Positions 11,422-58,800 of a stretch of 64,000 bases of DNA are shown here, piece by piece (positions within the stretch are counted from its first letter, which is position 1; the number at the start of each line of letters is the position of its first letter). Source of the stretch: Acidobacteriota bacterium (GTDB lineage Bacteria > Acidobacteriota > Thermoanaerobaculia > UBA5066 > Gp7-AA6); the NCBI GenBank assembly GCA_020199905.1, contig JAIVJS010000071.1:8668-72667 (forward strand), read 5' to 3'. The notes beneath the pieces were generated by a model. The model saw nothing but the letters and a program-made list of their open reading frames with translations, searched no databases and was not told the origin of the DNA. The position numbers and the translations under genes were made by a program.

Positions 11422-11425
11422 GTCC

Positions 11426-15235: not shown

Positions 15236-15286
15236 AGGGAAACGGAGCACGTCCTGGAGATCCGCGAGAGTCAGCGCGAGGGTTTC

Positions 15287-15757: not shown

Positions 15758-15773
15758 ACGTTTCGGCCGCGGC

Positions 15774-17693: not shown

Positions 17694-18806
17694 ATGCGAG
17701 AAGACCTCGGCCAGATCGACGTCTCGATGATCGCGGACCTCGCGAGAATCAAGAAAGAGGAGGAGCTCCTCGAGGAGCGACTCGTCAAGATGGAGGCCGG
17801 GAAACAGAAGGTCTCCGCAAAGGTCTACCGGCGCGTGCGGGAGGACTACGAGTCCCGCCAGGCGTCTTTCCGCAACGAATCGATCCCCCTCCAGGACCGC
17901 GCGAGGCGCGAGTACCAGAAGCTGCGCGAGATCCGCGGAAAAGTCGAAGCGTCGCTCGAAGAGGTCGCCCTCGAGAAGGAAGAGCTCGAGTTCCGGCGCG
18001 ACCTCGGCGAGTACGCCGACGGGCAGTTTCAGGAGCGCCTCCACGAGTGCGAACAGCGCCTGGCGGAGCAGCGGGGCGAGCTCGAGCGGATCGACTCGAT
18101 GGGAAAGGACTTTCTGGACGCCTTCCACTCGGAAAAGGATCTGGAGACTCCTTCCTCCGAACCCGCGGCGGCTCCGGAGGCCACCGCATCCAAACCCGCG
18201 GCGCCGGCCCCGCCCGCGGGAGACGCCACGGCGATCCGCCCGTCTCCCTCCCTCACCCTTCCCTCGCAGCCGCTCGCCACCCCGTCGGAGGCGCTGCGCC
18301 CCGCCGGCGCGGCCCCCGGCGCCGAGCCGTCCGTCAGTGAGACCGTCATCGGGAGCGGCACGGCGAAAGGGGCGCCCCCTGCTTCTCCCGATGCCACCCG
18401 CATCGACGCGAGGGTGCGGGACTCGGTGGCCGCGACCCGGCCGCAGACCGTTCCGACGATGCGGACGGGGCCGCCGCCTCCGCCCGCCGGCCCTCCTCCC
18501 GCCGCGACGACGGCCCTCCCTCGCCCGAGGCTTCTCATCCCGGGCGAAGGCGGCACGAGTCGGGAGCATGTCCTCGCCCCCGGGACCACGTCGATCGGAC
18601 GGTCCCCCAAGAGCGACCTCTGCCTGCCGCAGGGCGAGGTCTCGCGGCACCACGCGGACATCAGCTTCGGCCCCGATGGCTACAAGGTGCTCGACATGGG
18701 GTCGCCCAACGGAATCTTCGTCAACGGGAAGCGGGTCAAAGAGCAGCTCCTCGCCGAAGGCGACGTCATCCTCATCGGGATGCAGAAGTTGACCTATCGG
18801 GCGTGA
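17694..18806 (+). CDS. coiled-coil / Pro-rich / C-terminal FHA domain protein
   Basis: N-terminal coiled coil, Pro/Ala-rich linker, FHA ('VSRHHADI...GSPNGIFVNG'). Confidence 0.75.
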   Translation: MREDLGQIDVSMIADLARIKKEEELLEERLVKMEAGKQKVSAKVYRRVREDYESRQASFRNESIPLQDRARREYQKLREIRGKVEASLEEVALEKEELEFRRDLGEYADGQFQERLHECEQRLAEQRGELERIDSMGKDFLDAFHSEKDLETPSSEPAAAPEATASKPAAPAPPAGDATAIRPSPSLTLPSQPLATPSEALRPAGAAPGAEPSVSETVIGSGTAKGAPPASPDATRIDARVRDSVAATRPQTVPTMRTGPPPPPAGPPPAATTALPRPRLLIPGEGGTSREHVLAPGTTSIGRSPKSDLCLPQGEVSRHHADISFGPDGYKVLDMGSPNGIFVNGKRVKEQLLAEGDVILIGMQKLTYRA

Positions 18807-18849
18807 GGGAATTTGAGAATCCGGTCTTGAGCGTCGAGCATCAGACCGG

Positions 18850-18960
18850 GAACGCTCAACCCTTCGATTCCCGATCTCGTTGACCGCGGAGTACCGCGGC
18901 CGTCTCCCTCCCGTCGGTCGCTCGGCTCCCGATTCCCGGCTCCGGTCCCGCTTACAGCCC
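18850..18960 (+). repeat. dispersed ~80-bp intergenic repeat, copy B
   Basis: 'gattcccgatctcgttgaccgcggagtaccgcggccgtctccctcccgtcggtcgctcggctccc'. Confidence 0.8.
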
Positions 18961-19404
18961 TCCGCCTTCCGCGCTCAGCGCCTGGCGCCCCAGTCTTTTC
19001 CTCAAGATGAGCCGGTTCCTCCCTCGCCGGCGCTCGTAGTGCTGCTCGTCGGTCAGTTTCTTCACGATCAGGATCCCCAGGCCGCCGATCGGACGGCCCT
19101 CGAGGGGGGCCGACGTATCCGGGTCCGCGCGCCCGAGCACGTCGAAAGCCCGGCCGTCGTCGGTGAACAGCATCTCCAGATATCCGCCCTGGACCGCCGC
19201 GGAGAATTCGACGCGGCGGCCGGCCGGACTCTTCCAGGCGTGCCGGCCGATGTTGGCAAGGATCTCGTCGAGGATCACGAGGACGTCCGAGCGCACGCGC
19301 CGGGGGAGGCCGCGTTCTTTCGCGAATCTCTCGAACCGCTCCGCGGCGCGGGTCCGCCCCGCTTCGGTGGCGGGCAGACGCAGCCGGAGCGGAGGGGCCT
19401 TCAC
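18952..19404 (-). CDS. anti-sigma regulatory factor Ser/Thr kinase (RsbW/SpoIIAB-like, HATPase_c)
   Basis: GHKL motifs ('ILDEILANIGRHA', 'DDGRAFD', 'GGLGILIV'). GTG start at about 19404 overlaps the stop of the upstream HExxH gene. Confidence 0.7.
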   Translation of the reverse strand: MKAPPLRLRLPATEAGRTRAAERFERFAKERGLPRRVRSDVLVILDEILANIGRHAWKSPAGRRVEFSAAVQGGYLEMLFTDDGRAFDVLGRADPDTSAPLEGRPIGGLGILIVKKLTDEQHYERRRGRNRLILRKRLGRQALSAEGGGL

Positions 19405-20561
19405 GAGAGGTCCCGCGGCTGACGCGGGCGCACCAGGCGCTCTCCGAGGTGGCCGCCCGCCGCCGCGAGCTCGTCCAGACGGAGCGACCCGAGAGCGATG
19501 ACGCGGGCGCGCACCGCCCGTTCTCCCCCGGCGGCGGACGGCGGCGGGAGAGCCGCGAGGCTCCGCGCGGCGTCGTGTACGAGTCGCGCGGCGACCGCGA
19601 GACCGTCGTCGGAGAGCGGAGGCGCTCCCCGATAGTTCTGGAGGCGGCCCCCCTCCCGATATTTCGGAAAGCTCTCGAGGCCGAAGAAACGCAGCGCCAG
19701 GTCCACCCTGTACTCGCCGAAAGCTCCGAGCAGCCCGACGTAGTCGGCGATGACCTCGTCCAGCAGGTTGTTGCGCATCGCCCCCGCCAGGCGGAAGGTC
19801 GCGTAGTGCGTCGCTTCGTGCGCCTGGCGGATTCTTCCGGAGAGCTCCAGCCATTCCCGTTCCTCGAAGCCGGCCTCCGAGGCCGGGACGCCGCTGTACG
19901 GACCCACGGAGAGGATGAGGAATCGGTCTTCGTAGATCTCCCGGCGGGCCGCGACGGCCGCGAATTCGCCGGACCAGTCACCGAACACGTTGGCCGCCTG
20001 CCACCTTCTCCGGTACTCGTTTAACCGGTCCCAGTTGTTCAGGCCGGTGACGATGCACGCTCCCATCGACGGCGGCACCGCGATGGGCTCGTTGCGCGCG
20101 GAGAACGCCCGGACGAGCGCCTCGAAGTCCGTTCGTTCGGGCGCGGTGAGGACGGGAACGGGGCCGGTGGGAGTCCGCGCGATCTCCAGGGTCACCCGAT
20201 CGGGCGCCGAGAGCGCGATCCCCGTGGCCTCGGGATCACCTTCGGGCCGGATCCCCCGGCGGGTCGCCTTCCTGTAGGCCTCCGTCGCGCTGATGCCCGG
20301 CCGGACGGGAAAGAGCAGCTGAGAGAAGCGGGCCGCCAGCGCGGGGATGGCGCCGGAGACGCGGGCCTCGTCCGCATACCGGGACCACGCCTCGAGATGC
20401 GGCTCCTCTCCGCCGGCGAACTCGAAGGCCCGCGCGGCCTGTTCCGGAGTGAAGAGCGGCGTGTCGTACGCAAACAGCTCCCGGATGACGTCCGGCGAAG
20501 CGCCGAGGGAAGCCAGGCGCCCGCCGCGAGCGGACGCCTCGGAATCGGCCGGCTCGCTCAA
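19401..20561 (-). CDS. hypothetical protein with zincin-like HExxH motif ('AHEATHYATF...LDEVIAD')
   Basis: 386 aa. Lies between the FHA-cNMP ABC transporter and the RsbW-like kinase on the same strand. No family confidently recognised. Confidence 0.55.
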   Translation of the reverse strand: MSEPADSEASARGGRLASLGASPDVIRELFAYDTPLFTPEQAARAFEFAGGEEPHLEAWSRYADEARVSGAIPALAARFSQLLFPVRPGISATEAYRKATRRGIRPEGDPEATGIALSAPDRVTLEIARTPTGPVPVLTAPERTDFEALVRAFSARNEPIAVPPSMGACIVTGLNNWDRLNEYRRRWQAANVFGDWSGEFAAVAARREIYEDRFLILSVGPYSGVPASEAGFEEREWLELSGRIRQAHEATHYATFRLAGAMRNNLLDEVIADYVGLLGAFGEYRVDLALRFFGLESFPKYREGGRLQNYRGAPPLSDDGLAVAARLVHDAARSLAALPPPSAAGGERAVRARVIALGSLRLDELAAAGGHLGERLVRPRQPRDLS

Positions 20562-20729
20562 CCGGCTTCCAGCCCGCGGGTGCGAAAGGGATGCGGCCGT
20601 CGTGTCCGGTGTTTTGCCTTTTGTGGATGAAGCGGGTCACCGGCGCGCGCTTCTTCCGATTCGCGGTTTTGCGGGCAAAAGGCGGTCCACCAGAGCTTGC
20701 GCCGGCTCACGCCCTTTCTCAGCAACCTG

Positions 20730-23700
20730 CTAGACCTGCTGGCGCCGCGCGAGCTCGGCGAAGAGCCCGTTCTTCTTCATCAGCTCGTCGTACGACCCGA
20801 CCTCCGCCACGACGCCGTTCTGCAGGTAGCAGATGCGGTCCGCGTTGGCGATCGTCGACAGTCGGTGCGCGATGCAGATCCGCGTCGAGTTCATCTTGTC
20901 CATGCTCTGCGTGACCGTCGCCTGGGTCTTGTTGTCGAGCGCGCTGGTGGCTTCATCCAGAAACAGGATCTTCGGCTTGTTGACGATGGCGCGCGCGATC
21001 ATCAGCCGCTGCTTCTGCCCGCCGGAGAATCCCCCGCCGCCCTCGCTGACGTAAGTGTGCATCTGCATCGGCATCTCCCGGATGTCCTCGGCGAACCCGG
21101 CCGCCTCCGCCGCTTCCCACGCTTCGTCGATCGTGCGGGAAGAAGTGCCGACGATGTTCCGGTAGATGTCGGAGGGAAGGACGCGATTGTCCTGGAGCAC
21201 GACGCCGAGCTGCTGCCGGACGAGGCGCGTGTCGAGCGCCGCGAGATCCTGCCCGTCGTAGTAGATGCCGCCCTTCTCGGCCGTCTCGAAACCCAGCATC
21301 AATCGCATCAGGGTGGACTTCCCGGAGCCCGAGCCGCCGACGAACGCCACGAACTCGCCCGGCTCGATCTTCAGCGACACGTCCTGGAGGATCCAGGGGC
21401 CGTCTTCGACGTATCGGAACCACACGTGGGAGATCTCTATCTCGCCTTTCAGGGTTCCGGGCGCGGTCTTCGTATCGTCGATCTCGGGGGGCGTCGTCAG
21501 GATCGGCTTCAGGCGCTCCCAGATGGGAACGGCCTTCAGCATGCCGAGCGAAGCGTCCGAGAGCGACTGCATCGCCACGAGGAAGAGAGCGAAAGCGGTC
21601 GAGAATCCGATGAACTGGCCGGTCGAAATGCTCGAAGGAATTCCCTTGGCCGCTGCGCCCGTCTGCACGCTGACCAGCGTGAAGAAGATCGCCATCGAGG
21701 AAAGAATCGGGTACGCGGAGTTGAAGACGGAAACGGTATTCTGGATCTGACCCGCCTTGAATGCCAGGCGCCGCTGATCCGAAAACTCCTTCGCCCAGAC
21801 CCGGAAGCCGTGGTCTTCCGCGCCGGAGACCCGGAGCTTGCCGACGCCCGAGATCAGCTGGAGAACGAGGCCGGTGATCCTTCCCTTCATGGTGAGCTGG
21901 TCGCGCTGGTAACGGAGCTGGAGATAGTTCGCGACGGTCGTGAACGTGACGAACACGATCGTCAACCCGATCCCCAGAAGCGCGAGCGGGAGGCTGTACG
22001 TGAGCATCAGCACCACGTAGAAGATCGACGACATGGCTCCCAGGATCGCGCTGACTCCGGCGCCCGCCAGCAGGTGGCGGATAGCGTCGATTCCCTGCGC
22101 GCGGTCGGCGAGATCTCCGGACGAGTACTTGCGGAAGAACGTGGAAGGCAGGTCGAGAAGCCGATCCCACATCGCCGCCTGCACGGAATAATCCATCTTG
22201 CCCTGAACCCGGAGCACGGCGATGCTCTGCGTCAGTTTGAAGGCGATGGACGCGAGCGCGCCGATCACGAGAGCGATGCAGAACTGCACGAGCATTCCGC
22301 GCTCAGCCTGCGGGATCGCCGTGTCGAAGAGCCTTCCCGTGAAGTACGGCGTCATGGCGGCCAGGATTCCCATTCCGGCCCCCATGAGCGCCAGCGTGAT
22401 GAACTCCCGCCCGAGGCCGCGCACGCCGAACTTCAGGACGTGTTTGACGGTCAGGAGGCCATCGGGGAACCGGCGGTAGAACACCCACCCGAACGGCTGG
22501 AGCTTCGTCGCGAGCTCCGCGGTGATCGGCTCCCGCCGCCCCGTCTTGCCGTCGACCCACTCATACGACGTCGGCCCGGTCGGGAGGAGCGCCACCGGGT
22601 CCTTCGTCTCCTCGCTCCGGGCGAGAATCGGCCCCTGATCCTGCTCCCACCAGTTGTCTCGAAGCGCGACCTGGCGCGTCCGGAAGCGCGAGAGCGTGGC
22701 GACGGCGTGGAGATGGTCTTCGAAACTGCGCTCGGCGGCCGTCTCCGCCGGCTTGCGGGCCTCCATGCCGAGCTCTTCGCAGACCGCGCGGCACGCCTGA
22801 AACACCGGCTCCGCCTCGCCGAACGTCGCCCGCGTCTTGCTCTTTCCCGAGCTGGCGAGGACCGCGCCGATGTCCTTGTAGGCCGCTTCCCGCGCGGCGT
22901 TCAGGTTTTCGGACTTGTTCTTCTGCCGGTTGAACTCGTCGACCGATGCGAGCCTCTTGTTCAGGAACTCGCATTCGCAGAGAGCCTGGTGGAACGCGTC
23001 GAGCCCGCGCCAGAGCTCGGGACGCGCCAGGACGGCGGCGCTCGAACGCGGATTCAACGAGAGGCCCTCGACGGAGGATTCGATCCAGGTGTCCCGCGTC
23101 ACCGGAAAGAGGATGGCGCCGGCGCCCGGCAGGACTTCCGCCATGCTCACGAAGAGAAGCGCGCCGCCGCGGACCTCCACCCAGAGGACGCCCTTCTGAG
23201 CCCGGGCGCGTCCCTGGAAAGGAAGCATCGCCGGCTCTCCGTCCATGAGATCCACCGAGGCCGGTCCGGAAGGCAGGTCGCGGACGAGAGACTTCGAGAG
23301 GCCGGTCACCCACGTCTCGACGAGCGTCGAAATTCGCTCCGCGTGCTTCCCGGACGTCGCGAGTTCCGCGAGCCTCCCGCGCGAGATCATCCGCAGCTTG
23401 GTTCCCGTCTTCCCGGCGGCGAGAAACCCCGAGCCGAGGCCGTAGCCCGCGACGTCCATCCCGAAGAGAGCCTGGCCGGTCTCGACGCTGACGAAGTGCG
23501 TGCGCGCGCCCGCCTCGCCGTCCTTCAGGGGAACCGTGAAGATCTCGAGCCGGCCCTCCTCGACGATCCACATCGCGTTCGGATCGTCCAGGAGAAACGG
23601 CTGGTTGCCGGCGACCGGGATCGGCTCTCCTTCGTCTTCGAGGCGCACGGAGAGCGCCAGCCGTATGCTCTCGAGCATCTCGCGGCGCGGAATCTGCGCG

Positions 23701-24086
23701 GTCTGTACGAGGTCGAGGTCGTCTCCTTCGGGCTCGTCGTCGCGGAAGAACTCGAGCACGGTCCCGCCGACTCGGAAGCGGTCCAGGTGGTCGAGAGGAG
23801 CCTGCTGGACCCGTTGGTCGCCGATCCACGTCCCGTTGGCGCTGCCGAGGTCCGTCAGCAGGTAGCCCGTCGCCGTCTTTTCGACGCGGGCGTGCCGGCG
23901 CGAGACGCTCGGGTCGGGCACGACGGCGTCGCCCTCGACCCTCCCGATGACGCAGCTGTCCGCGGCCGTGAACTCGCGCCCCAGGGTCGCCGCGCCGCCC
24001 TCGACCGCGCGGAGGCGGAATCCGCCTGCCGCCACCGGCCGGAGCCGGATGATCTGAGTGGCTTCGAGATCGGGCTCGGTGCTCAT
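20730..24086 (-). CDS. NHLM-bacteriocin-system-type ABC transporter with N-terminal FHA domain and cNMP-binding-like domain, then TMD and NBD
   Basis: FHA ('SRRHARV...DLGSANGTWIGD'), cNMP-like ('MWIVEEGRLEIFTV'), 6-TM exporter domain, intact NBD (Walker A 'GGSGSGKST', 'FSGGQKQR', '[12 protein letters not shown]'). Confidence 0.9.
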   Translation of the reverse strand: MSTEPDLEATQIIRLRPVAAGGFRLRAVEGGAATLGREFTAADSCVIGRVEGDAVVPDPSVSRRHARVEKTATGYLLTDLGSANGTWIGDQRVQQAPLDHLDRFRVGGTVLEFFRDDEPEGDDLDLVQTAQIPRREMLESIRLALSVRLEDEGEPIPVAGNQPFLLDDPNAMWIVEEGRLEIFTVPLKDGEAGARTHFVSVETGQALFGMDVAGYGLGSGFLAAGKTGTKLRMISRGRLAELATSGKHAERISTLVETWVTGLSKSLVRDLPSGPASVDLMDGEPAMLPFQGRARAQKGVLWVEVRGGALLFVSMAEVLPGAGAILFPVTRDTWIESSVEGLSLNPRSSAAVLARPELWRGLDAFHQALCECEFLNKRLASVDEFNRQKNKSENLNAAREAAYKDIGAVLASSGKSKTRATFGEAEPVFQACRAVCEELGMEARKPAETAAERSFEDHLHAVATLSRFRTRQVALRDNWWEQDQGPILARSEETKDPVALLPTGPTSYEWVDGKTGRREPITAELATKLQPFGWVFYRRFPDGLLTVKHVLKFGVRGLGREFITLALMGAGMGILAAMTPYFTGRLFDTAIPQAERGMLVQFCIALVIGALASIAFKLTQSIAVLRVQGKMDYSVQAAMWDRLLDLPSTFFRKYSSGDLADRAQGIDAIRHLLAGAGVSAILGAMSSIFYVVLMLTYSLPLALLGIGLTIVFVTFTTVANYLQLRYQRDQLTMKGRITGLVLQLISGVGKLRVSGAEDHGFRVWAKEFSDQRRLAFKAGQIQNTVSVFNSAYPILSSMAIFFTLVSVQTGAAAKGIPSSISTGQFIGFSTAFALFLVAMQSLSDASLGMLKAVPIWERLKPILTTPPEIDDTKTAPGTLKGEIEISHVWFRYVEDGPWILQDVSLKIEPGEFVAFVGGSGSGKSTLMRLMLGFETAEKGGIYYDGQDLAALDTRLVRQQLGVVLQDNRVLPSDIYRNIVGTSSRTIDEAWEAAEAAGFAEDIREMPMQMHTYVSEGGGGFSGGQKQRLMIARAIVNKPKILFLDEATSALDNKTQATVTQSMDKMNSTRICIAHRLSTIANADRICYLQNGVVAEVGSYDELMKKNGLFAELARRQQV

Positions 24087-24087
24087 C

Positions 24088-26172
24088 TCAGTGGGCCGCG
24101 ATCAGGTATTTGTAGAAACCCTCGACGTCTTTCATGCCGTCGTGAGTCCCGCGCTGGACGATCTTCCCGCGATCCATGATGACGATCTCGTCCGCGTCCC
24201 GGATCGTGGAGAGCCGGTGGGCGATGATGATGCAGGTGCAGCCGCGCCGCCGGAGGGCGTCGTCGATCGTCGCCTCGGTGCTCGGGTCGAGCGCGCTCGT
24301 CGCCTCGTCCAGCAGGAGAATGGTCGGGCCGAGGGACAAAGCGCGCGCGATTTCCAGGCGCTGGCGCTGCCCTCCCGAGAAGTTACCCCCGCCCTCCTCG
24401 ACCGCCGCCCCGTATCCACCCTCGCGCGCCTCGATCACCTCGTGAATCTCGGCGTCGCGGCACGCGCGGGAGATCGTCGTCGTGGGAATCGTCGAGTCCC
24501 ACATCGAGACGTTCTCGCGGACCGTGCCCGAGAAGGGTCGACTTGCCGCTGCCGCTCATTCCGACGAGGGCGACGCGCTGGCCGGGCTTGATGACGAGGT
24601 TGAAGTTCTCGATGAGCGGCTTTTCGAGCGGGCTGTACCCGAAGGTCACGTTGCGGAGCTCGACGTGGCCGGTGAGCTTCAGGACCGCCCGGTCATCCTT
24701 CTCCTGCTCCTTCTCGCGGGAGTAGAGCGCGTCCTGCGGGTATCGGAGCACGTCGTCCAGCCGATTCATGTCCGCTTCGAGCTCCTGGAGGCTTCCGCCG
24801 AAGGAGACGAAGGAGTTGAGCGGCCGGGTGAAGCTGGCGACGAGAGTCTGATAAGCAACGAGCATCCCGACGGTGAGCTGGCCGTTCATCACCTTCAGCC
24901 CGCCGATCAGGAGCACGAGAGTCGTCGTCAGGGTGTTGACGAGCGGCGGGACGACGCCGACGGCTTCGCCGAGGATGCCGAGTGTCTGATCGGCCTTCAG
25001 CGCCTTCGCCTGGTATCCCGACCAGCGCCCGAAGAACTCCGTCTCACCGCCGGTCGCCTTCAGGGTCTCGATCATCTTCAGGCCGTTCATCGCGGTGCCC
25101 ATGAGCTTCCCGTGGTCTTGGGTGAGCCGGCGGCTCGCGTCGACCCGCTTTCTGGAAACGATTTTCACGGCAACGATGTTCAGGGCCGAGACTCCCATGA
25201 CGACGAGAGTCAGCGTCACGTCATACACGAACATGAGTGCCGCGTAGAACAGGATGAGAACGCAGTCGAGCGCGGTCGTCGCGAGCTTCCCCGAGACGAG
25301 ATGCGCCACCTTGTCGTTGATGAGGACCCGCCCTCCGATCTCGCCCGCGTACCTCTGGGAGAAGTAAGAGACGGGAAGCCGCAGGACGTGGTGAAAGAAC
25401 TGGCTCGACGTCTTCAGCGCGAGTTTCGTCTCCAGGCGCAGCAGGTAGTAGTCCTGGAGCCAGGTCAGGATCATGCGGATGACCGCGGTCGCGGCCATGC
25501 CCATCAGCAGCGACTTCAGGATCCCGGCGCGGTTGGACACCAGGTACTCATCGATGAAGATCCGGGCGAACGTCGGCACGATCAGGCCCGGGATCACGAG
25601 CGCGACGCCGCACAGGAAAACGAAGAGAAGCGCCGCCTCGGAGCCCTGAAGGCGCCGCCGAAGCGCCGCTCCCATGCTCGGCTTCTCTCCGCCCTTCGTG
25701 AACTCGGGTCCCGGCTCGAACGTCAGGACGACGCCGGAAAAGGACGCGTCCACGTCCTCCATGGTGACGACGCGCGGCCCCTGCGCCGGATCCTTCAGGA
25801 AGACCTTGCCCTTGCTTCCGAACCCTTCGAGGACGAGGAAGTGGTTGAAGTTCCAGAACAGGATGACGGGGAACTTCTGGACGTAGAGATCGTCCAGCTC
25901 GTACTTGTAGCCCTTCGCGACGAGCCCGTACTTGCGGGCCGCCTTCATGATGTTGCTCGCCTTGCTCCCGTCGCGCGAGACGCCGCACGCGACCCGCAGC
26001 TCCTCGAGCGGCACGATCTTCCCGTAGTACGCCAGGATCATCGCGAGAGCCGCCGCGCCGCATTCGACCGCCTCCATCTGGAGGATGGTCGGCGTCTTGA
26101 CCCGACGATGCTGAGGCTTCTTCGGGGTGGCGGGCGCTTCGTCGGTCTCGGGCTGCTTCTGAGCTTCCACGT
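24088..26172 (-). pseudogene. C39-peptidase-domain ABC transporter (bacteriocin/lanthipeptide leader-cleaving exporter), NBD disrupted
   Basis: N-terminal C39 domain ('ECGAAALAMILAYYG') and TMD intact. After Walker A ('[10 protein letters not shown]'), about 43 aa including the Q-loop are missing and the frame shifts by +1. The rest of the NBD ('FSGTVRENV...FSGGQRQR...[11 protein letters not shown]...IIIAHRL') is in ORF 24088..24504. Likely GTG start about 26172. Confidence 0.7.
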
Positions 26173-26177
26173 GCCGC

Positions 26178-27329
26178 CTAGCCCCCGCCGAGGGACCTCT
26201 TGACCACGGGCAGGACGTAGGAAATGGGCGTACGGCTCTCGACAACGACCGACGCCGTCGCCAGGGTGCCGCTGTTGACCTGGGTCGGCGGGCCCTTGGA
26301 CGACGACCACCGGTAACCTGAAGGGGTCGACGCGTCGGGGATGAGCGTCGCGACGGCCTCGATCGGGGCGCTCTTCCCCATGAGCGTCTCGACGAGCTTG
26401 TCGTTGCGAAGCACTTTTCTCAGCCCTTCCGGCGTCACCGGAAACTCCGAAACCGACTTCACCTTCCCGACGAGGAATCCGTACTCTTCCGCCTTCACCG
26501 TCGTGGGAGAAATGCGGACCTGCATTCCGGGGCGGACCTTCTTGCCCTCCCCCGCCGGAATGTAGATCACCGTTTCCAGGGGAGCATTCAGAGGCTCGAG
26601 CGTCAGCAGCCGGGTCCCCGGGCTGATCATGTTCCCGCCGGAGCTCGTGACCTCGAGGACTCTCCCGTCATAGGGGCTCCGGATGTCGGTAGACGACGCC
26701 AGCTGCTCTTCGAGTTCTTTGAGCTGGCGCTTCAGATCCTCGACGCGGATCACCTGCCCGGACTGGGAATCCTTGTTCTGCGAGATGAGCGCCTCCGTCG
26801 AGGCCAGCTGCTCCTGAGTCCGCAGCAGCGTCCCGTTGGTCAGGAGGCCCCGGGCGACGAGCCGCTGCTGGACGCCCACTTTTTCCCGCAGCGCCCGCGC
26901 CTGCGCCTGGTACTGGCCGACGATCGAGCTTCCCCGCTGCCCCGACGCGGTCCTCTGCGCTTCGAGCTGGACGAGCCCGGCTTTCGTGTTGGCGATCTTG
27001 AGGGTGAGCTCCGGCTGGGCGATCTTCGCGACCACCTGACCCTTCTTGATCCGGTCGCCGGCCGCCACGAGCACCTGTTCGATGCGCCCCTGCGCCCCGG
27101 AGCTCACGTCATAAACGGCGGCCCCTCGGATCAGCATCCCCTGCCCGTCGACGCGAATGCCGATCGAGCCCACGACGCTCCAGACGACGACGAAAGCGAG
27201 GATGATCCCGGTGCCGACCAGCGCAATCCACCCCGTCGGAGACGTCACGCGCATCATCACGTCGAGCTGCTCGGGAGAGGACAGCTTTTCGAGAGCGCTT
27301 TTCCGAAAAAGCCCTTCGCCTATACCCAT
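26178..27329 (-). CDS. HlyD-family secretion protein (NHLM bacteriocin system membrane-fusion protein)
   Basis: Single N-terminal TM, coiled-coil, beta-barrel MFP architecture. Start 'MGIGEGLF' at about 27329. Confidence 0.85.
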   Translation of the reverse strand: MGIGEGLFRKSALEKLSSPEQLDVMMRVTSPTGWIALVGTGIILAFVVVWSVVGSIGIRVDGQGMLIRGAAVYDVSSGAQGRIEQVLVAAGDRIKKGQVVAKIAQPELTLKIANTKAGLVQLEAQRTASGQRGSSIVGQYQAQARALREKVGVQQRLVARGLLTNGTLLRTQEQLASTEALISQNKDSQSGQVIRVEDLKRQLKELEEQLASSTDIRSPYDGRVLEVTSSGGNMISPGTRLLTLEPLNAPLETVIYIPAGEGKKVRPGMQVRISPTTVKAEEYGFLVGKVKSVSEFPVTPEGLRKVLRNDKLVETLMGKSAPIEAVATLIPDASTPSGYRWSSSKGPPTQVNSGTLATASVVVESRTPISYVLPVVKRSLGGG

Positions 27330-30500: not shown

Positions 30501-31562
30501 GCGGGGTCTGTCGGTCCCGGGAACGCGTCGGCCGCGAGCGGGGCGTTCGCCTCTTCGAGGACCGAGAGCCCCATGGCGCGGGCGAGGTTGACGCGCGCTT
30601 CGTTGACGGCGCGCGCGGCGTTGAAGACGAGGCTCTGGTCCCCCGCCTGGCTCGCGAGCACACGCGCCCGTTCGGAGCGCGGGATCTCGTCGCCGGAAAT
30701 GAGCGCGTTGGTGACGTCGACGCGCCGGTTCTGGAGCTCGACCGACTTTCTGGCGATGTCCAGCTGCTCCAAACTGCTCGAGGTTCCGCTTGCCCTTGAA
30801 GCGGTCCGACTCGAAGCTCCCCTTGAAGATGAGTCCCGGGGTGATGCCGTTGCGCGCCGGCTGGATCAGCTGGAGATCGATGTTGCCCGCGATGCTCTGG
30901 TTTTCCTTCGGGAGGGGACCGAGATCCGCGAGCTTCTGCCGCTCGCTCGCGAGCTCGATCTCGGATTGATTGAAGACACGCTGGTTGGTCGAGAGCCCGC
31001 GCGCTATCAGGTCCCGTCGGAGGTTCTCGTAGATCGCCCTCACTTCCGGGTCGGTCGTGTTTCGGATCGTCGTATTGAGGATGTCGAACTGGGTCTGCTC
31101 GCCCGTATCCGTCAGGCGGAAGCCGGTCGGATCGAGCGCGAGGCGCTGGTACTCGCCGATCGCCGACTGCGCGGTGTCGCGTGTCTGCGTGATGTCGGCG
31201 ATGCTCTTCTGAATGTCCGTGCGACGTTTCTGCTCCGCGATCACCTGCGACCGGGTCAGGGCCGTCTGGGTGAGCGAAAAGTTCAGGTTCCCGAGGAGAG
31301 TGAGATCGAAACGGCCGGTTTCCGTCTGCGCCACACCCTCCTGCAGCCGCGTCTGCTGCTCGGAGAGCTTGATGTTGGGATCGTGCTGGAGCGTGAGCCG
31401 CACGGCGTCGATCAGGGAAATGCGGTTGTCCGGAAACGTCAGCGCGGGAGGGTCGTAGGGCGCCGCCGGAGCGTCCCGGTGCGTGTCCGCGGCGAGCAGC
31501 GGACCGCACGATACGGCCATCAGGAGAACGATCGGACGCAACCGCGCGGGCAACGCGTTCAT
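27575..31562 (-). CDS. tandem double TolC-like outer-membrane factor (two complete OMF units joined by Pro/Ala/Thr-rich linker); first unit interrupted by a 10-nt insertion/frameshift
   Basis: Frame A (from 31562) has a signal peptide plus the TolC N-half up to '...KGKRNLEQ'. Frame B (30772 downward) carries the TolC C-half, a ~130-aa linker and a second full TolC-like unit without a signal peptide. Deleting 'caaactgctc' at about 30768-30777 joins the frames to '...RNLEQLDIARK...'. Confidence 0.65.
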
Positions 31563-34457
31563 CTGCGGACTCCTTTGTCGGCGGCCGAAGGCGCCGGCGA
31601 AGAATTTCGATGTAAGGACTGAACAAAACGTAGCATCGGCGCGCGAGCGGCGTCAAGGCCGCGACCGCCGCGAGGGGACTCTTCGAAGAGCAGCACGCAC
31701 GGAAGAAAATCGGGCGCCGCGGACCTCAAGAGCGCATAGCCGATTCCCGAGAGCCCGCGGAAGAAGCCGGGGTCGGCCGGGGCGGAATCGTTTCCCTCGT
31801 TTTCGAGGCGGAAGCTTCCGCGGGCGATCGCGGCGTGCAGCAGGGCGGCGATCCGAAGGTCCGCCGCGCGGCGCCAGTCGTCGCGCCCCGCGGCCTGCCC
31901 GGCCGCGAGGAAGATCTCCGCGAGTCCGGCGTTTCCGCAGCAGAGATGGTCCGTCGAGAGAAGGCCGGTCGCCAGGGCGGCGGACATCGCGCGCTCGAGC
32001 TCGCCCGAGAGGGACGGGTCCGGAGACCGGGCGAGCATTCCCGCGCGAGCGAGAGCGATTCCCGGAGCGCCGTGACACCACGCCTTCATGAAGACCGGCG
32101 GACGGCTCGGAACGGGCGAAAGCACGGGCCAGTTGCCCTGCGCCGCGTCGTACAGGCTTTCCTCGTAAAGACGCGCCTCTGCGGCGGCGGCGGCGAACCG
32201 TTCTCGGCCCCCCGCCTCGGAGAGCCGCGCGAGCGCCAGAGAGATGCCCGCCGCTCCGTGCGCCAGACCGGCCAGGCACGTCCCGCCCGGCGACTCCCAA
32301 CCCCATCCGCCGCCGGTGATCCGCTTCGCCCCCGCGAGCAGAGAGTCGCCGCACACCGTTGCGGCTTCGAGCGCCGCCGGATCGCCCGTCAGCCCGTAGA
32401 GCGCCAGCAGTCCGAGCGCGGCGCCCGCCGCGCCGCCCTCGACGTCCGGTATCGCGGTGCCGCCGATCCGCGCGCCGGTGATGCGCGCGGCCGCGCGGCG
32501 CGCGAGCCGCAGGAAGTCGGGGTCGCCCGAGATCGAGGCGATGGCCGCGAGACCGTATACGAGCGAGCCCGTTCCGTCGCCGGCCCCGATCGACTCTCCG
32601 GGCGCCGGTGCCGCGTCTTCCCCGTCCGCGTCCAGGGCGTGCGCGATCGGCCGGCAGACCTCGCGCGCCGCCTCCAAAAACGAGGAGTCCTTCGCGACGG
32701 ACGCCAGGGCCGCGAAGAAGACCGCGATGCCGGCGGCCCCCGAATAGAGGCCCGTCCCGCCGGCCGCCGGCCGCGCGGCCAGAGTCCTCCTCACGTCCTC
32801 CCCGATCCCGCGCGCGAGCCGCAGGAGCTCCGAGGGAGAGAAGCCCGGGTCGCCGGGCGGCCGGCCGGATCGGGATGAGGGCGGAGCGAGCCTCGGACGG
32901 AGCCACGCGACCTGACCCGCCAGGCCTTCTTCCGACATCGCGGCCAGCCGTCGCCTCGCGGCCTCCAGCCCCGACCGCACGATGCGTCCCTCGATCGGAT
33001 CGCCTCCCGCCACGGGAATTTCGCGAGCGTCCACCGGGACGCGGAAGTACGGGACGTCGAGCCTCTCCAGCGCGGAGCGCTCTTCCTGCGTGAGACGCCA
33101 CAGCGCCGGCGGTCGATCGTCTTCGCGGAAGACACGGTTCAGAGAATCGATCGCGAAGCTGCGCGAGACGCCATCGCGAAGGTGCCCCGGCGCGGCGAGC
33201 TCAAGGAGGAGGCGGGCGTAGGTCTCACTCGCGCGAAGCACCAGGCGCGTCGAGATGCCGGCGAAGGCATCGAGCGGACCGCCGGGCGAGCCAATCCCGC
33301 GGCGATGTTCGATCAGGGCGCGATAGGCGTCGGAGAACCCGCGCTCGAGTTCCTCCGGGAAATCGTCCGGCAGGAGAGCGTGCCCGTCAAAAATCGGAAG
33401 ATTCATCGGGCTGGCCGGGGAGGTCGCAGCGGTCGTCTCCATCGCGTCCGTGCCGGGACGGGGGAAGGTCGGCCTCACCGCCGCCGCGCCGCCCCGCAGA
33501 CCGGACAGCTCCGAGACGTCCCCCGACCGCTCGACCCGCGGCGACGTGAGAAGGCCCGAGCGAAGCGCCGACTCGCGCCACTCCCGCGCGAACCGGCCGA
33601 TCGCGCCCGATCGTCCCTCGTCCGCCGCCGCGAACTCCGGCTGCAGCGCCGACTCGGCATCGACGATCGCGGGGCCATCGGCCGACCCGATCACGTTCTC
33701 GACATGGAGGTCGTCCAGACCCATGAGCCAGGCGGCGCAGAGGAGAGCGCCCGACCGGCGGACATAGGCGCGGGCGCCGCCCTCCTCCGCGAGAGCCCCG
33801 CGCTCGATGAGCTCGAAGTATCCATAGTCGTCCCGGGAAAGGGCCACGACGGGCCGCAGCCCCAGGGAGGGGACGCGCCCGCCGAGCCAGGAGAGGAACC
33901 CGTCCCACGCCGCTTCCGCCCGCGGGTCCCGGGGCTTGTAGACGACCGCCGCGCCATTTTCGAATCGGAGAACGCTGACCGTGCGGCCTCCCCGGTGACG
34001 GTCGGAAATCGACGGAACGATCCCGATGACGGGCCCCTCCGCTCGGAAGCGCTCCGCCAGCGCCCTCCGATCGGCGGAGAGGCGCGCCGCGAGTTCGTTC
34101 GTCGTGTCGACCCAGCTCTCCGACAGGATGGCGAGCTGCCGGGCGAGGACCCGGAAAGGCGACGCCGGCATCGACATCGACCGGGAGCGCGGTGTCCCCG
34201 CGCGCGGCCCGGGAAAGGTAGGACGCGAAGACCGCCGTCCACGGAGGCAGCGCGCCGCCCGGGAAGGTGACGGGAACGGCCAGCGCCGCGTTGACCCGCG
34301 CCTCGTCGAGACCGTCCCACGCGAGCCGACGGGCGAACGCGTCCTCCCGCCCTCCCGCCACCATGCGAGCCCACCCCGCGAGTCGCGGGTCGGTTTCCGG
34401 ACCGGGGACCGGTTCGCGGATGCCTCGGGCGAGATCGAGTCTCTCGTCCAGGCTCAT
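31559..34457 (-). CDS. lanM: class II lanthipeptide synthetase LanM (dehydratase DUF4135 + LanC-like cyclase); apparent frameshift near the 5' end
   Basis: LanC-like C-terminus ('WCHGAPGIALA', 'CCGNAGLAEIFL', 'GxxHGxxG'). DUF4135 region ('RTVSVLRFENGAAVVYKPRD'). The first ~90 aa with a LanM-like N-terminus ('RLAWDGLDEARVNAAL') lie in ORF 33387..34457 in another frame; the switch is around 34165-34200. The 5' end overlaps the TolC start (ATGA). Confidence 0.8.
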
Positions 34458-34571: not shown

Positions 34572-34892
34572 TTAGACGAGCTTGATTTCGACGTGGGTGT
34601 TGATCCCGCCCTGCGCCTTGTTGCAGTTGTGGTCCAGGAAGCCCCCGGCCACCATCTCGAGCGCGCTGTCGGAGAGCTCCGCGCCGGCCTTCGGCACGAA
34701 GGGGACGACCACGTAGAGCGTGTCGGCCGTTTCCTCGACCGCCTTGACCTTCATGCCCGAGGGGAGGGTCGTGTTCAACTGCTTCTCCATCGTGCCCTTC
34801 GGATCCTTCATGAGCGCCTCGCGATACTTGGGGTCGTTCGCCGCGAACTTTCCGAGAAGATCCTGAATCTCTCCGCGACTGATGTCGGCCAT
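34572..34892 (-). CDS. lanA: NHLP (nitrile-hydratase-leader-peptide) family lanthipeptide precursor
   Basis: Leader 'MADISRGEIQDLLGKFAANDPKYREALMKDPKGTMEKQL...VKAVEETADTLYVVVP...ELSDSALEMVAGG' matches the NHLP leader consensus and ends in a GG cleavage motif. Predicted core 'FLDHNCNKAQGGINTHVEIKLV'. Confidence 0.85.
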   Translation of the reverse strand: MADISRGEIQDLLGKFAANDPKYREALMKDPKGTMEKQLNTTLPSGMKVKAVEETADTLYVVVPFVPKAGAELSDSALEMVAGGFLDHNCNKAQGGINTHVEIKLV

Positions 34893-36254: not shown

Positions 36255-36370
36255 GGAATCTTAGTCGGGAAACGGGAAACGGGGAAACGGGAAACGACCG
36301 AGCAGGCAGCGCGGCCCCGTTCCGTCTCCCGCCTCCCGCCTTCCCCCTGCCGCCTGCCGGGCTGCGCCGA
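36255..36370. repeat. composite heptanucleotide tandem-repeat block: (GGGAAAC)n then (CTCCCGC)n
   Basis: 'gggaaacgggaaacggggaaacgggaaacg' and 'ctcccgcctcccgccttccccctgccgcctgcc', in the divergent region between the sigma-54 activator and ccmC. Confidence 0.8.
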
Positions 36371-49988: not shown

Positions 49989-51395
49989 CTAAATGTGGAT
50001 TGCGTGCCCGGCTACGGCCTCCGCCGCCTCATGCATCGCTTCGGACAGCGTGGGGTGCGCGTGGATCGTTCGGACCAGCTCTTCCGACGTCGCCTCGAGG
50101 CGGAGGGCGGCGCCCGCCTCTGAGATGAGCTCGGTGGCCTTCGGGCCGATGATGTGGACGCCGAGCACCTCGTCGTATTTCTTCTCCGCCACGATCTTCA
50201 CGAAGCCCGCCGTCTCGTTGATGATCCGCGCCTTGCCGATCGCGGAGAAGGGGAACTTCCCGACCACGACGTCGTAGCCGCGCTCGCGTGCCTTCGCTTC
50301 CGTCAATCCGATCGAGCCGATCTCCGGCGAGCAGTACGTGCAACCGGGCACCTGGTCGTAATTCAACGGCGGAGGGTTCTTGCCCGCCAAGTGCTCGACC
50401 GCGACGATCCCTTCGGCGGAGGCCACGTGGGCGAGCCAGGCCGTCGGCACGACGTCTCCGATCGCGTAGATGCCCGAGACGTTCGTGCGCATCATTCCGT
50501 CGACGCGGATGTACCCGCGGTCAGTCGCGACTCCGGCGGCCTCGAGACCGATGCCCTCCGAGAGGGGCTTCCGGCCCACGGCCAGGAGCATCTTTTCGGC
50601 GCGGAACGTCTCCGTCTTTCCGCCTGAGGTTCGAGCGAGCACCTCGACGCCGTTGTCCATCTTCGTGACCTTCTCGACGCGCGTGTCCACGTAAACGGCG
50701 ATTCCCTGCCGCTTGAAGGAGGCGGCGAGCTCGCGGGAAATCTCCTCGTCCTCGACGGGCACGATTCGCGGCAGCACTTCGATGACGGTCGCCTTCGACC
50801 CGAAGCGGGCGAACATCGAAGCGAACTCGACACCGACGGCGCCGGAGCCGATCACCAGGAGGGACTTGGGCACTTCCGCGAGATCCAGGATGGAGTCGGA
50901 AGAAAGGATGGTGCGGTGGTCGATGTCGATCCCCGGAAGCGACCGGGGCGAGGAGCCGGTCGCCAAAAGGATGTTCTTCGCGCCGAACTCCGATTCCGAC
51001 CCGTCGGCCGCTTTGACCGCCACCCGCCCCGGCCCCGCGATCCGGCCGAATCCGGGCGTGACGTCGACGCGGTTCTTCTTCATGAGGTACGAGACGCCGT
51101 TGGAGCTCTGGCGGACCACCTTCTCCTTGTGTTTCTGCGCCCCCGCCATCTCGAGCTTGATCTCACGGGCCATGACCCCGATGTCGGCGCCGTGGCGTGC
51201 CTCCTCGAGGAGGTCGGCGGTGTGGAGGAGGGCCTTCGTCGGGATACATCCGCGCAGGGTGCAGACGCCGCCGAGTCTCGGCTCGAGCTCGATCACCTGC
51301 ACGGAGAGTCCGAGCTGCGCCGCCCGGATCGCGGCGACGTAGCCGCCGGGTCCGGAACCGATGATCGAAACGTCGTAAGTCTTCGATTCGTTCAT
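49989..51395 (-). CDS. lpdA: dihydrolipoyl dehydrogenase
   Basis: FAD motif 'GSGPGGY', redox-active 'GGVCTLRGCIPTK', C-terminal 'HAHPTLSE'. Confidence 0.9.
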   Translation of the reverse strand: MNESKTYDVSIIGSGPGGYVAAIRAAQLGLSVQVIELEPRLGGVCTLRGCIPTKALLHTADLLEEARHGADIGVMAREIKLEMAGAQKHKEKVVRQSSNGVSYLMKKNRVDVTPGFGRIAGPGRVAVKAADGSESEFGAKNILLATGSSPRSLPGIDIDHRTILSSDSILDLAEVPKSLLVIGSGAVGVEFASMFARFGSKATVIEVLPRIVPVEDEEISRELAASFKRQGIAVYVDTRVEKVTKMDNGVEVLARTSGGKTETFRAEKMLLAVGRKPLSEGIGLEAAGVATDRGYIRVDGMMRTNVSGIYAIGDVVPTAWLAHVASAEGIVAVEHLAGKNPPPLNYDQVPGCTYCSPEIGSIGLTEAKARERGYDVVVGKFPFSAIGKARIINETAGFVKIVAEKKYDEVLGVHIIGPKATELISEAGAALRLEATSEELVRTIHAHPTLSEAMHEAAEAVAGHAIHI

Positions 51396-51439
51396 GAATG
51401 GATCCTCATCCGAGGGCGGAGGTTATCAGCACTTGCCGA

Positions 51440-51632
51440 GGGCGAAGGGCGAAGGCGAAAGGCGAAAGACCCGGGGCGGGGGCACGGGCCGAAGGGCGCT
51501 CGGTTGAGCGGGGCCCGTCAATTCGAACCGATTTCGATCTGGGCTCTTCGTTTCCCGTTTCTCGTTTCCCGTTTCTCGTTTCCCGATTTCCGGGTCCTTC
51601 CGCCTACCCCCTCCCGCCTTCCGCCTCCCGTC
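51440..51632. repeat. composite heptamer repeat block: (GGCGAAG)n, (CGTTTCC/CGTTTCT)n, (CTCCCGC)n
   Basis: 'ggcgaagggcgaaggcgaaaggcgaaag', 'cgtttcccgtttctcgtttcccgtttctcgtttccc', 'ctcccgccttccgcctcccg'. Confidence 0.8.
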
Positions 51633-52178
51633 TCACGTGTCCACACCCTCACCCGGCGCGGTCGGGTCCGTCCTCAGGGCTTCGTTGAAACGGTTGAAGT
51701 AGGCGAAGAGTCCCACCACGCAGGCGATCTCGACCACCTCGCCCTCTTCGAAATGCCGGCGCAGCTCGGCGAACGTCGCGTCGGACACCTGGCTGGCGTT
51801 GCTGGTCATCTCGAGGCCGAAGCGCAGCGCCGCTTTTTCCCGCGGATCGAACGGTCCATTCTCGAAATCGAGCAGCTTCGCGATCTGATCCGGCGTCGCT
51901 CCCAGCCGCTCTGCCAGAGCGGTGTGCGAACGCGTTCAATAGTGGCAGGCGTTCGCGAGCGAGGTCTGAAGGGCGAGCAGCTCCTTCAGCTTCAGGGAAA
52001 CGGTGCCCGATCCCATCACGGCGGAGAAATGCGCGTCCATGGTGGAAAGGATCCAGGGCCGGTGCGCGAACACGCGGTACTGGTTCGGGATGTTTCCCCG
52101 CTCCGCGATCTTCCGTTCGAAGGCGTCGCGCGCCGCGCCCGACACCGCAGACCGTCCGACCCGGCTGATCCGCGCCAT
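51633..52178 (-). CDS. AhpD-like / carboxymuconolactone-decarboxylase-family peroxidase-related protein, candidate selenoprotein (in-frame UGA at 51936-51938)
   Basis: ORF 51936..52178 ends 'SLANACHY' at a TGA. The same frame continues 'TRSHTALAERLGATPDQIAKLL...DPREKAALRFGLEMT...' to a stop at about 51633. Together these give the CMD-family active site C-x-x-[U]-x-x-x-H. Confidence 0.65.
51895..51932 (-). promoter_or_regulatory. candidate bacterial SECIS hairpin immediately 3' of the in-frame UGA
   Basis: mRNA: UGA-acg-cgUUCGCacaCCGCUCuggcaGAGCGGcugggaGCGAc. A 6-bp upper stem with 5-nt loop on a 4-bp lower stem, starting about 5-13 nt after UGA. Confidence 0.45.
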
Positions 52179-52189: not shown

Positions 52190-52346
52190 ATCAGAGGCCG
52201 GGAGCCGCGCGACCAGCGGGAGCGAGACGGCCGCGGTACTCCGCCGTCAACTCGATCGGGGACGGGAAACGGGAACGGGAAACGACGGGAGATACGTCGT
52301 CATGCCGTTCCGCGTTCGCCCTTCGCCTCCCGCCTCCCGCCTCCCG
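52190..52346 (-). repeat. dispersed ~80-bp repeat copy E (inverted orientation) followed by (GGGAAAC)n and (CTCCCGC)n heptamer arrays
   Basis: Minus strand reads 'gagttgacggcggagtaccgcggccgtctcgctcccgctggtcgcgcggctccc'. 52262-52346 holds 'gggaaacgggaacgggaaacg' and 'cgcctcccgcctcccgcctcccgcc'. Confidence 0.8.
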
Positions 52347-52367
52347 CCCAGTTAGAATGCATCCCCT

Positions 52368-53501: not shown

Positions 53502-53580
53502 AAGCTGTCAGCCATCAGCTCTCAGCTGTCAGCATGAGAAAAGCCGCTCGACTGAGAGCTGAAAGCTGAGAGCTCAGAGC
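53500..53580. repeat. (CTGTCAG/CTCTCAG)n heptamer array forming a long imperfect palindrome; candidate bidirectional terminator
   Basis: 'gctgtcagccatcagctctcagctgtcagc' ... 'gctgagagctgaaagctgagagctcagagc' between convergent genes. Confidence 0.6.
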
Positions 53581-54224
53581 TACTTTCCCTCGATCACGAA
53601 CTCGTCGAAGGTCATGATCCCGGGTCCGGCGGTCCCGATTCCCGCCCGGCCGGCGGCCGGGGCCGTATCCTGCGCCTCGAAGAGAGGCTTGCCTTCCCAG
53701 GCGGCGGCCACCCGCGGTCCGGACAGCTCGACGGTCAGAACTCCCCACTCCCGCGGCGTTTCCGAGGTGGCCCGGGCGAGCTCCGTCGTCCTGCCGGCCC
53801 GCGACTGGAGGAGCCGCGCCTGACCGGTCACCGGGTCGATCAGCACGGCCAGGTAGTTCTTCTCGTCCGCCAGACGAAAGACGATTCCTCCGGTGCCCGA
53901 AAGCTTCTTGATTCCCAGGGACAGAGTCCCGTCGCGGAGCGTTACGCTGCGCCGCAGCGCGGCGCCGATCGACTCCGTGGGACGCGACGAAACGACCTGG
54001 CTGATCGCGTTCGGGGCCGAGGGCGGATTGAATTCCGCGACCACCTTCCACGACGTTTCGCCCGGAGCGCCGAGCGCCACGAAATCGAAGAAGGCGGGCT
54101 CGCGCATGACGGCGTCCGAGTCGAAATGATTCCGGAGCTTCTCCCCCGGGGCGGCGGCCGGCAGGAGGCTCATCAGGGCAAGAGCCAGCGCGCCCGGCCA
54201 GAGAAATCGGCTGTGTCGCTCCAT
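53580..54224 (-). CDS. secreted hypothetical protein (possible DUF1080/lectin-like beta-sandwich)
   Basis: Signal peptide 'MERHSRFLWPGALALALMSLLPAAA'. No catalytic motifs recognised. Confidence 0.5.
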   Translation of the reverse strand: MERHSRFLWPGALALALMSLLPAAAPGEKLRNHFDSDAVMREPAFFDFVALGAPGETSWKVVAEFNPPSAPNAISQVVSSRPTESIGAALRRSVTLRDGTLSLGIKKLSGTGGIVFRLADEKNYLAVLIDPVTGQARLLQSRAGRTTELARATSETPREWGVLTVELSGPRVAAAWEGKPLFEAQDTAPAAGRAGIGTAGPGIMTFDEFVIEGK

Positions 54225-54548: not shown

Positions 54549-54607
54549 GCTGTCAGCCGTCAGCTGTCAGCCGTCAGCTCTCAGCTCTCACCTCTCAGCT
54601 CTGAGGC
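54549..54607. repeat. heptanucleotide microsatellite (NNTCAGC)x8
   Basis: 'ctgtcagccgtcagctgtcagccgtcagctctcagctctcacctctcagctctgagg'. Confidence 0.8.
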
Positions 54608-58561: not shown

Positions 58562-58800
58562 GCCGGAGTATAGGCCGAAGGCGCGGGAGGCGGGAGGCGG
58601 GAGGGCGAAGGCGGAGAAGCTCTCAGCTGTCAGCTCTCAGCTTCCCGCCGGCGCCGGTCGCCGGACGATCCGGCGAAAGGCGAAACAAGATCGGGGCAGC
58701 GGCGTCTCTTTCAATTCCCGATCTAGTTGACCGCGGAGTACCGCGGCCGTCTCGCTTCCGTAGGTCGCTCGGTTCCCGGATCCCGTTCTCCGGCCCGCCT
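58562..58800. repeat. heptamer block ((GCGGGAG)n, (CTCAGCT)n) plus dispersed ~80-bp repeat copy D (58690-58800)
   Basis: 'gcgggaggcgggaggcgggagggcgaaggcggag', 'ctctcagctgtcagctctcagc', and 'aattcccgatctagttgaccgcggagtaccgcggccgtctcgcttccgtaggtcgctcggttccc'. Confidence 0.8.

Follow-up and report, generated by a model that had tools for sequence, protein, structure and literature searches.

The stretch of DNA considered here, which we call the window, comprises 64,000 nucleotides of contig JAIVJS010000071.1 from an Acidobacteriota bacterium (assembly GCA_020199905.1). On its minus strand lies an AhpD-like gene of the CMD family (51633..52178, read from 52178 to 51633), whose frame contains an in-frame UGA at codon 81 (51936..51938, minus strand) that is very probably read as selenocysteine (Sec). 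In translation the frame opens with an ATG at 52178 and runs through 80 codons to the TGA at 51938–51936, then through 100 sense codons to a TGA stop at 51635–51633, making 181 sense codons when UGA-81 is counted among them. The first-pass annotation of this DNA had placed an in-frame UGA after SLANACHY in a CMD/AhpD frame, and this is how the sequence reads: SLANACHY-UGA-TRSHTALAERLG, with the residues around the UGA forming the motif C78-H-Y-U81-T-R-S-H85 (CxxUxxxH). The same annotation was right that the frame continues past the UGA, although it does so for 100 codons and not for the 98 it had given.

The composition of the two halves is of the coding type on both sides of the UGA, with a G+C content at third codon positions of 0.85 and 0.81. 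Gene callers nevertheless break the gene at this codon. The list of open reading frames (ORFs) for the window gives an 80-residue piece (51936–52178) and a 58-residue piece (51633–51809), a split into two pieces that the first-pass annotation had noted, and the NCBI entries for the same two pieces, MCA1581819.1 and MCA1581818.1, are both labelled 'hypothetical protein' and come from Acidobacteria metagenome-assembled genomes (MAGs). The gene calls of assembly GCA_020200255.1 contain the identical two-piece split. A different treatment is found in the closest homologue, the JGI protein P0001 (L001:355-900, Ga0683344_0459097), which has a 'W' at residue 81 where its contig has TGA, so that the gene caller must have applied a code in which TGA specifies Trp. 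Such a code does not fit the window, where TGA is the commonest stop codon and terminates 23 of the 40 genes; thus the genetic code is not reassigned. A window-wide scan identified UGA-81 as the only in-frame TGA flanked by coding-like sequence once gene junctions are excluded; the scan returned just codon 81 and two ordinary gene junctions, and hence no second selenoprotein gene in the window.

Searches of family profiles were made with Cys substituted at residue 81. The Pfam CMD domain (PF02627) matches residues 45–120, and so spans the UGA, with 54.3 bits against a cut-off of 23 (E = 1.4e-14), and the AhpD core domain TIGR00778 scores 45.3 bits against a cut-off of 27.8; both scores lie above the curated cut-offs and place the protein in the CMD/AhpD family to which it had been assigned on first reading. 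The best-scoring full-length NCBIfam model is NF053654, 'YciW-related (seleno)protein', a family flagged as holding selenoproteins, which covers residues 1–170. At 83.3 bits against a cut-off of 310, however, the window protein is not a member of that family, and we rejected the assignment. Among proteins of known structure, the AhpD-core entries 2prr, 2pfx and PA0269 (2o4d) match with E values of 1e-12 to 2.5e-14, and their C-x-x-C-x-x-x-H motif aligns with C78-H-Y-U81-T-R-S-H85. The UGA therefore falls where the second active-site Cys is expected, as had been claimed, both in these three structures and in the orthologues described below.

For the fold we used the AlphaFold model of P0009, a Cys-containing orthologue that is 76% identical to the window protein and stands in for it. 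The model is all-helical, with a predicted local distance difference test score of 95.7, and its active-site helix is H79–91. In Foldseek comparisons it superposes on 2prr, 6k40 (a Deinococcus AhpD), 2pfx and 3c1l with template modelling (TM) scores of 0.84–0.87, and on the debrominase Bmp8 at about 0.85. The topology is thus that of the 'peroxidase-related' structures 2prr, 2pfx and 6k40 (TM about 0.85) and not that of M. tuberculosis AhpD (1knc), against which the model scores only about 0.58. The helix-turn-helix active site and its five-residue relay are nonetheless shared with both M. tuberculosis AhpD and PA0269, the two proteins for which the five proton-relay residues have been defined (PMC3141380). 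Glu36, Cys48, Tyr50, Cys51 and His55 of PA0269 correspond to Glu66, Cys78, Tyr80, Sec81 and His85 of the window protein, and Glu66 is at least 90% conserved. The window protein differs from these two enzymes in having Sec for the second Cys, and in that neither an ahpC gene nor a gene for a lipoyl carrier (E2) was found in the scan of 40 window ORFs.

We considered how codon 81 varies among relatives of the gene. A protein search returned 373 homologues, the best of which are 181 residues long, colinear with the window protein, and labelled Acidobacteriota or Thermoanaerobaculia. DNA was fetched for 80 loci from species-representative genomes and 80 from metagenomes, codon 81 was mapped by tblastn, and the counts given here cover 163 loci and the window, 164 in all. 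TGA occurs at codon 81 in 39 of these orthologues (inferred to encode Sec), Cys in 116 (TGC in 109, TGT in 7), Gly in 6 (GGC in 5, GGA in 1) and Ser in 3 (AGC in 2, TCC in 1). Of the TGA forms, 11 belong to different species-representative Acidobacteriota genomes (L004–L009, L012, L030, L050, L057 and L068, labelled Acidobacteriota, Thermoanaerobaculia or Terriglobales), 26 to metagenome loci, one to a further JGI contig and one to the window itself; at the protein level they are between 94% and about 55% identical to the window.

The residues flanking codon 81 differ between these forms. All 39 TGA forms retain C78 and H85 and hence the full CxxUxxxH motif, whereas Cys78 is lost in 106 of the 116 forms with Cys at position 81; TxxC is found in 97 of the latter and CxxC in only 10. 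The forms with Thr78 (T-P-Y-C-L-A-S-H) have a single-Cys active site and fall in a Terracidiphilus/Acidobacteriaceae clade (L026-L083 and L107-L163). Among the nine Gly or Ser forms, six keep Cys78. The retention of Cys78 in every putative Sec form, set against its loss from most Cys forms, is a hint that Sec and Cys may support different chemistry in this fold.

Just beyond the UGA, the RNA is predicted to fold into a hairpin of the type expected for a selenocysteine insertion sequence (SECIS). The core hairpin, CCGCUCU-GGC-AGAGCGG (51906..51922, minus strand, read from 51922 to 51906), begins 13 nucleotides 3' of the UGA and consists of a 7-bp stem, CCGCUCU/AGAGCGG, with the tip GGC, or alternatively of a 6-bp stem with the loop UGGCA. 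The minimum free energy (MFE) is -9.8 kcal/mol for the 17-mer and -22.1 kcal/mol for the 48 nucleotides from the UGA, and a generalised pattern for the hairpin occurs once in the window, where 0.04 occurrences are expected by chance. In the MFE structure the core is extended by a lower helix (51894..51934, minus strand), which is conserved only in part. The first-pass annotation had described a SECIS-like element composed of CCGCUC-UGGCA-GAGCGG on a lower stem UCGC/GCGA. Its upper part is present, specific to the UGA forms and covarying; the lower stem is present in the window but is not conserved, being paired in only 73% of cells over 38 distinct relatives. We accordingly rejected both the UCGC/GCGA stem and the lower helix of the MFE structure as required parts of the SECIS, since they are broken in many relatives.

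The core hairpin strictly accompanies the TGA. All seven pairs are in register in 39 of 39 TGA forms, compared with 1 of 125 non-TGA forms, and in the alignment of the 39 sequences 266 of 266 cells are paired. Three pairs contribute 44 double-sided compensatory cells: one exchanges among CG (23), UA (11) and UG (4), another between UA (22) and CG (16), and another between CG (21) and UA (17). Eight sequence variants of the hairpin occur, each fully paired; none of 500 shuffles reaches the covariation score, and registers slid along the alignment come nowhere near it. Some of these exchanges alter the encoded protein, which reads TALAER, TVLAER or TVLARR at this place, so that the RNA pairing has been kept at the protein's expense. 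The constraint is also visible in the codons themselves. Over codons 86–91 the entropy at third codon positions is 0.13 bits, against a mean of 0.93 for the gene, and no other segment of the gene scanned in this way is as low. The codon for Ala89 is GCA in 20 of 21 TGA forms and GCC in 21 of 26 close non-TGA forms.

The hairpin can be compared with the consensus for bacterial SECIS (bSECIS) elements (PMC13188914 Fig. 2), which has an apical loop of 3–9 nucleotides, an upper stem of 4–16 bp, a G within the first two loop positions, 16–37 nucleotides between the UGA and the loop, an MFE of -7.5 kcal/mol or lower, and a loop of the form N1-G-[G|U]-N-N2 in which N1 and N2 pair. The element described here agrees with it in every respect, with a loop of 3–5 nucleotides (GGC or UGGCA), a stem of 6–7 bp, a UGA-to-loop distance of 19–20 nucleotides and an MFE between -9.8 and -22.1 kcal/mol.

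The pattern of substitution beyond the UGA bears on whether this part of the gene is made into protein. When the window is compared pairwise with other TGA forms, the ratios of nonsynonymous to synonymous substitution rates (dN/dS) are 0.06–0.31 over codons 82–181, and 0.06–0.25, with no further stops, over codons 82–123, which lie ahead of any internal ATG. Low ratios over both intervals exclude the reading of the downstream half as a pseudogene and the reading of the locus as two separate products. Thus, by its pattern of substitution, the sequence downstream of the UGA is translated and under purifying selection.

These observations, namely a UGA at the catalytic Cys position in 39 sequences, a downstream half that is translated, and a covarying hairpin specific to the UGA forms, lead us to regard the locus, with high confidence, as a genuine selenoprotein gene. 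The gene would encode a single 181-residue AhpD-like thiol/selenol oxidoreductase in which the UGA at codon 81 is recoded to Sec. In the mRNA, a 17-nucleotide stem-loop would form 13 nucleotides past the UGA. If it works as characterised bacterial SECIS elements do, its apical loop, which contains G, would be bound by SelB loaded with Sec-tRNA(Sec), and Sec would thereby reach the ribosome while the UGA is in the A site. In the folded protein, Sec81 would be the attacking nucleophile within the relay Glu66–Cys78–Tyr80–Sec81–His85, and Cys78 would resolve it as a selenenylsulfide. The dependence on SelB and tRNA-Sec, the redox chemistry and a link to dihydrolipoyl dehydrogenase (Lpd) are the parts of this scheme that we infer.

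The suggestion of Lpd as a partner comes from the order of the genes. Directly downstream of the AhpD-like gene (cmd) lies a gene for Lpd (lpd, 49989..51395, minus strand), identified by TIGR01350 with 576 bits against a cut-off of 408.8. Among the 15 Sec loci whose flanks are long enough to tell, 12 have the order cmd→lpd, which also occurs with Cys forms of the Thermoanaerobaculia-like clade. Mycobacterial AhpD is reduced in an Lpd-dependent manner, and it is this system, together with the gene order, that suggests the idea. We propose that reducing equivalents may come from the Lpd encoded downstream, and that Lpd may thus be the electron donor for the AhpD-like selenoprotein. In the scan of 40 window ORFs, none showed a domain of AhpC-TSA, Redoxin or 2-oxoacid dehydrogenase E2 type; such proteins may be encoded elsewhere in the genome.

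Several results weigh against the assignment or against parts of the scheme built on it. In a fold test against shuffled sequences the z-score is just -2.06 for 57 nucleotides of the hairpin region in this G+C-rich context, and -0.28 for a 101-nucleotide stretch; stability in such DNA is in itself weak proof of a functional element, and it is the comparative evidence that decides. The hairpin has no match in Rfam, whether the whole window is searched at the gathering threshold or the interval 51840–51990 at permissive settings, as might be expected from the diversity of bacterial SECIS elements. SelA, SelB and SelD were not found among the 40 window ORFs by Pfam searches or within 10 kb of either end, and ARAGORN detected no tRNA, and hence no tRNA-Sec, in the window or in 27 loci. 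With the model of the 'peroxidase-related enzyme' family TIGR01926 the window protein reaches 80.4 bits, slightly below the cut-off of 81.8, and its orthologues at L050 and L012 fall on either side of that value, at 92.0 and 70.3 bits. Finally, the order cmd→lpd is absent from two Sec-containing clades (L050/L100/L104 and L141/L147), where the neighbours in L050, L104 and L141 (a VWA protein, an arylsulfotransferase and an anti-sigma/STAS pair) are uninformative, and the link to Lpd is one of gene order only.

How else might the locus be explained? A single base separates TGA from the TGC of most orthologues, and public annotation carries the two halves as separate hypothetical proteins, as would be seen if the gene were a pseudogene or if the TGA were a sequencing or assembly error for a Cys codon (TGC or TGT). 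An error of this kind would have to be repeated in 38 other independently assembled sequences, which share the TGA and whose proteins are 55–94% identical to that of the window, a divergence that excludes a single misassembled template; decay, for its part, is at odds with a downstream half that is under purifying selection and has no extra stops or frameshifts. Neither would explain why a hairpin with compensatory changes strictly accompanies the TGA, and we give this explanation practically no weight. The two products listed by ORF callers and by NCBI are also exactly those predicted if the UGA is a true stop, with an 80-residue N-terminal protein followed by a separate C-terminal protein made from an internal start, for example the ATG of the 58-residue ORF at 51809. 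The single CMD domain (residues 45–120) crosses the UGA, however, and an 80-residue fragment would break off within the active-site helix of the P0009 model. Every Cys-form orthologue is a single 181-residue protein, and codons 82–123, which such an internal start would leave untranslated, show the low dN/dS given above. Termination at codon 81 is therefore very improbable.

The remaining alternative accepts that the UGA is read through, specifically at this site, but by something other than Sec: an opal-suppressor tRNA such as an allo-tRNA, or a tRNA(Cys) that resembles tRNA-Sec and inserts Cys, while the hairpin stimulates read-through. Possible nonsense suppressors, tRNAs of the 8/4 and 9/3 types, have been reported in Acidobacteria, and opal suppressors of the selC*-type tRNA(Cys) class in other phyla (PMC5389517); moreover, the Sec machinery was not seen in the window, in its 10-kb extensions or in the fetched loci. 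The selC* tRNAs were, however, not found in Acidobacteria in that same study (PMC5389517), and a general suppressor would be costly to a genome in which, to judge from the window, TGA is the main ordinary stop. The recoded site is the catalytic Cys, where the chemistry makes sense only with Sec or Cys, and the hairpin, by the sequence of its loop, its size and its spacing, fits the bSECIS consensus of the SelB type. The phylum is, besides, one of documented Sec users that include an AhpD-like selenoprotein (PMC1794560; PMC12013277). Support for the Sec machinery is at the level of the phylum: selenoproteins were attributed to Acidobacteria in 2006 (PMC1794560 Table 2), Occallatibacter riparius is a Sec user with three selenoproteins, one of them AhpD-like with C-P-Y-U (PMC12013277, Table 2, Data S1), and Sec-containing hydrogenases have been reported from Acidobacteriota MAGs (PMC13582414); for selenocysteine in Thermoanaerobaculia, we found nothing relevant in the literature. 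Taken together, these points leave read-through without Sec with a small chance. Its more specific form, in which the UGA is recoded outside the canonical SelB/tRNA-Sec route, for example by an allo-tRNA of the Acidobacteria or by a tRNA-Sec-like tRNA(Cys), and the hairpin serves as a local read-through signal, we hold to be very unlikely; if it were true, the locus would represent a conserved and structured non-Sec site of stop-codon recoding in bacteria.

A selenoprotein at this locus would have well-known relatives. Among CxxU selenoproteins, the AhpD-like (COG2128/TIGR01926) and the CMD-like families have long been established (PMC1088965; PMC2398784 Table 2; PMC13188914). Those of the AhpD-like family have been known since 2005, and this family was first described from the Sargasso Sea and Global Ocean Sampling (GOS) metagenomes (PMC2398784 Table 2; PMC13188914 table). 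The statement in the first-pass annotation that AhpD-like proteins are a known selenoprotein family is thus borne out by the literature (PMC2398784 Table 2; PMC13188914). The window protein resembles the members of this family in its PF02627/TIGR00778 domain, in a CxxU motif with Sec in the second position, in the abundance of Cys homologues and in having a bSECIS just downstream of the UGA; it differs in belonging to a distinct acidobacterial orthologous group with a conserved SECIS sequence of its own. The reference member MCB9421940.1 aligns with its U at residue 81, yet is only 22% identical. The AhpD-like selenoprotein of Occallatibacter riparius DSM 25168 comes from the same phylum and family, also has its U at residue 81, and reads C-P-Y-U-L-D-S-H where the window protein reads C-H-Y-U-T-R-S-H. 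Its identity to the window protein is 28% over 154 residues, however, which indicates a paralogous subfamily rather than the same gene. From these comparisons of sequence, we would class the gene as a new subfamily, or a new member, within the established AhpD-like/CMD superfamily selenoproteins, at the edge of TIGR01926 and unannotated in public records.

The distribution of the hairpin among the orthologues suggests that Sec has been lost recently in some lineages. When the first 138 sequences are arranged in a neighbour-joining tree, the TGA forms fall at several separate positions. Three non-TGA forms carry the hairpin together with the GCA loop codon: L088:1036-1578, which has TGC at codon 81 and all seven pairs, and L015:3001-3543 (GGA) and L011:1871-2413 (TCC), each with six of the seven. 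L088 is sister to the Sec form L089, and L015 and L011 stand beside the Sec form L012. Although the tree is a rough one, the simplest reading is that these three hairpins are decaying SECIS 'fossils' that remained when Sec was recently replaced by Cys, Gly or Ser.

The surroundings of the gene include several further features. Between cmd and lpd is a 237-nucleotide spacer (51396..51632) that contains period-7 tandem repeats (TRF rows at 51437–51634) and, although it belongs to the locus, stands outside the selenoprotein mechanism; no terminator-like site was found between the two genes. On the other side, the gene upstream of cmd is divergent and encodes a periplasmic binding protein. Period-7 tandem arrays fill many intergenic gaps of the window (36266-36359, 51437-51634, 52257-52348, 53503-53581, 54549-54602 and 58572-58642), with units that include CGGGAAA, CCGCCTC, GGCGAAA, CGTTTCC, AGCTGTC and GCTCTCA, and the arrays on either side of the selenoprotein gene are mutual inverted copies (51548–51572 and 52262–52285). 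Since the gap between cmd and lpd is 237 nucleotides here and 30 nucleotides in the relative L002, the arrays look like insertions.

Farther away, cytochrome c oxidase genes (COX1, COX2, COX3, DUF420 and CtaA; 6103-12181, minus strand) suggest that the host of the selenoprotein is aerobic or microaerobic. Signalling genes with an abundance of FHA domains occupy 14354-24086 and encode a protein with cNMP-binding and FHA domains, a STAS protein, an FHA-GAF-SpoIIE phosphatase, an FHA protein, a DUF7005 protein and a 1118-residue ABC transporter with an N-terminal FHA domain. They are followed by a class II lanthipeptide-type cluster (24383-26245, 31559-34177 and 34572-34892, all on the minus strand), whose parts are a LanM-like synthetase (DUF4135 + LANC_like), a C39-peptidase ABC exporter and a small protein with a nitrile-hydratase-alpha-like region, which is a candidate precursor peptide.

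The AhpD-like gene leaves the general picture of bacterial selenoproteins unchanged. Its importance lies rather in what the records of these acidobacterial genomes conceal, since an active-site selenoenzyme is invisible in them when the entries show two hypothetical proteins or a Trp at the UGA. In other words, selenoprotein genes can sit in protein databases disguised as full-length 'W' variants. As one orthologous group with 39 putative Sec forms and 125 forms without Sec, and with a short, well-defined SECIS that occurs in eight covarying variants, the family would provide a clean natural data set.

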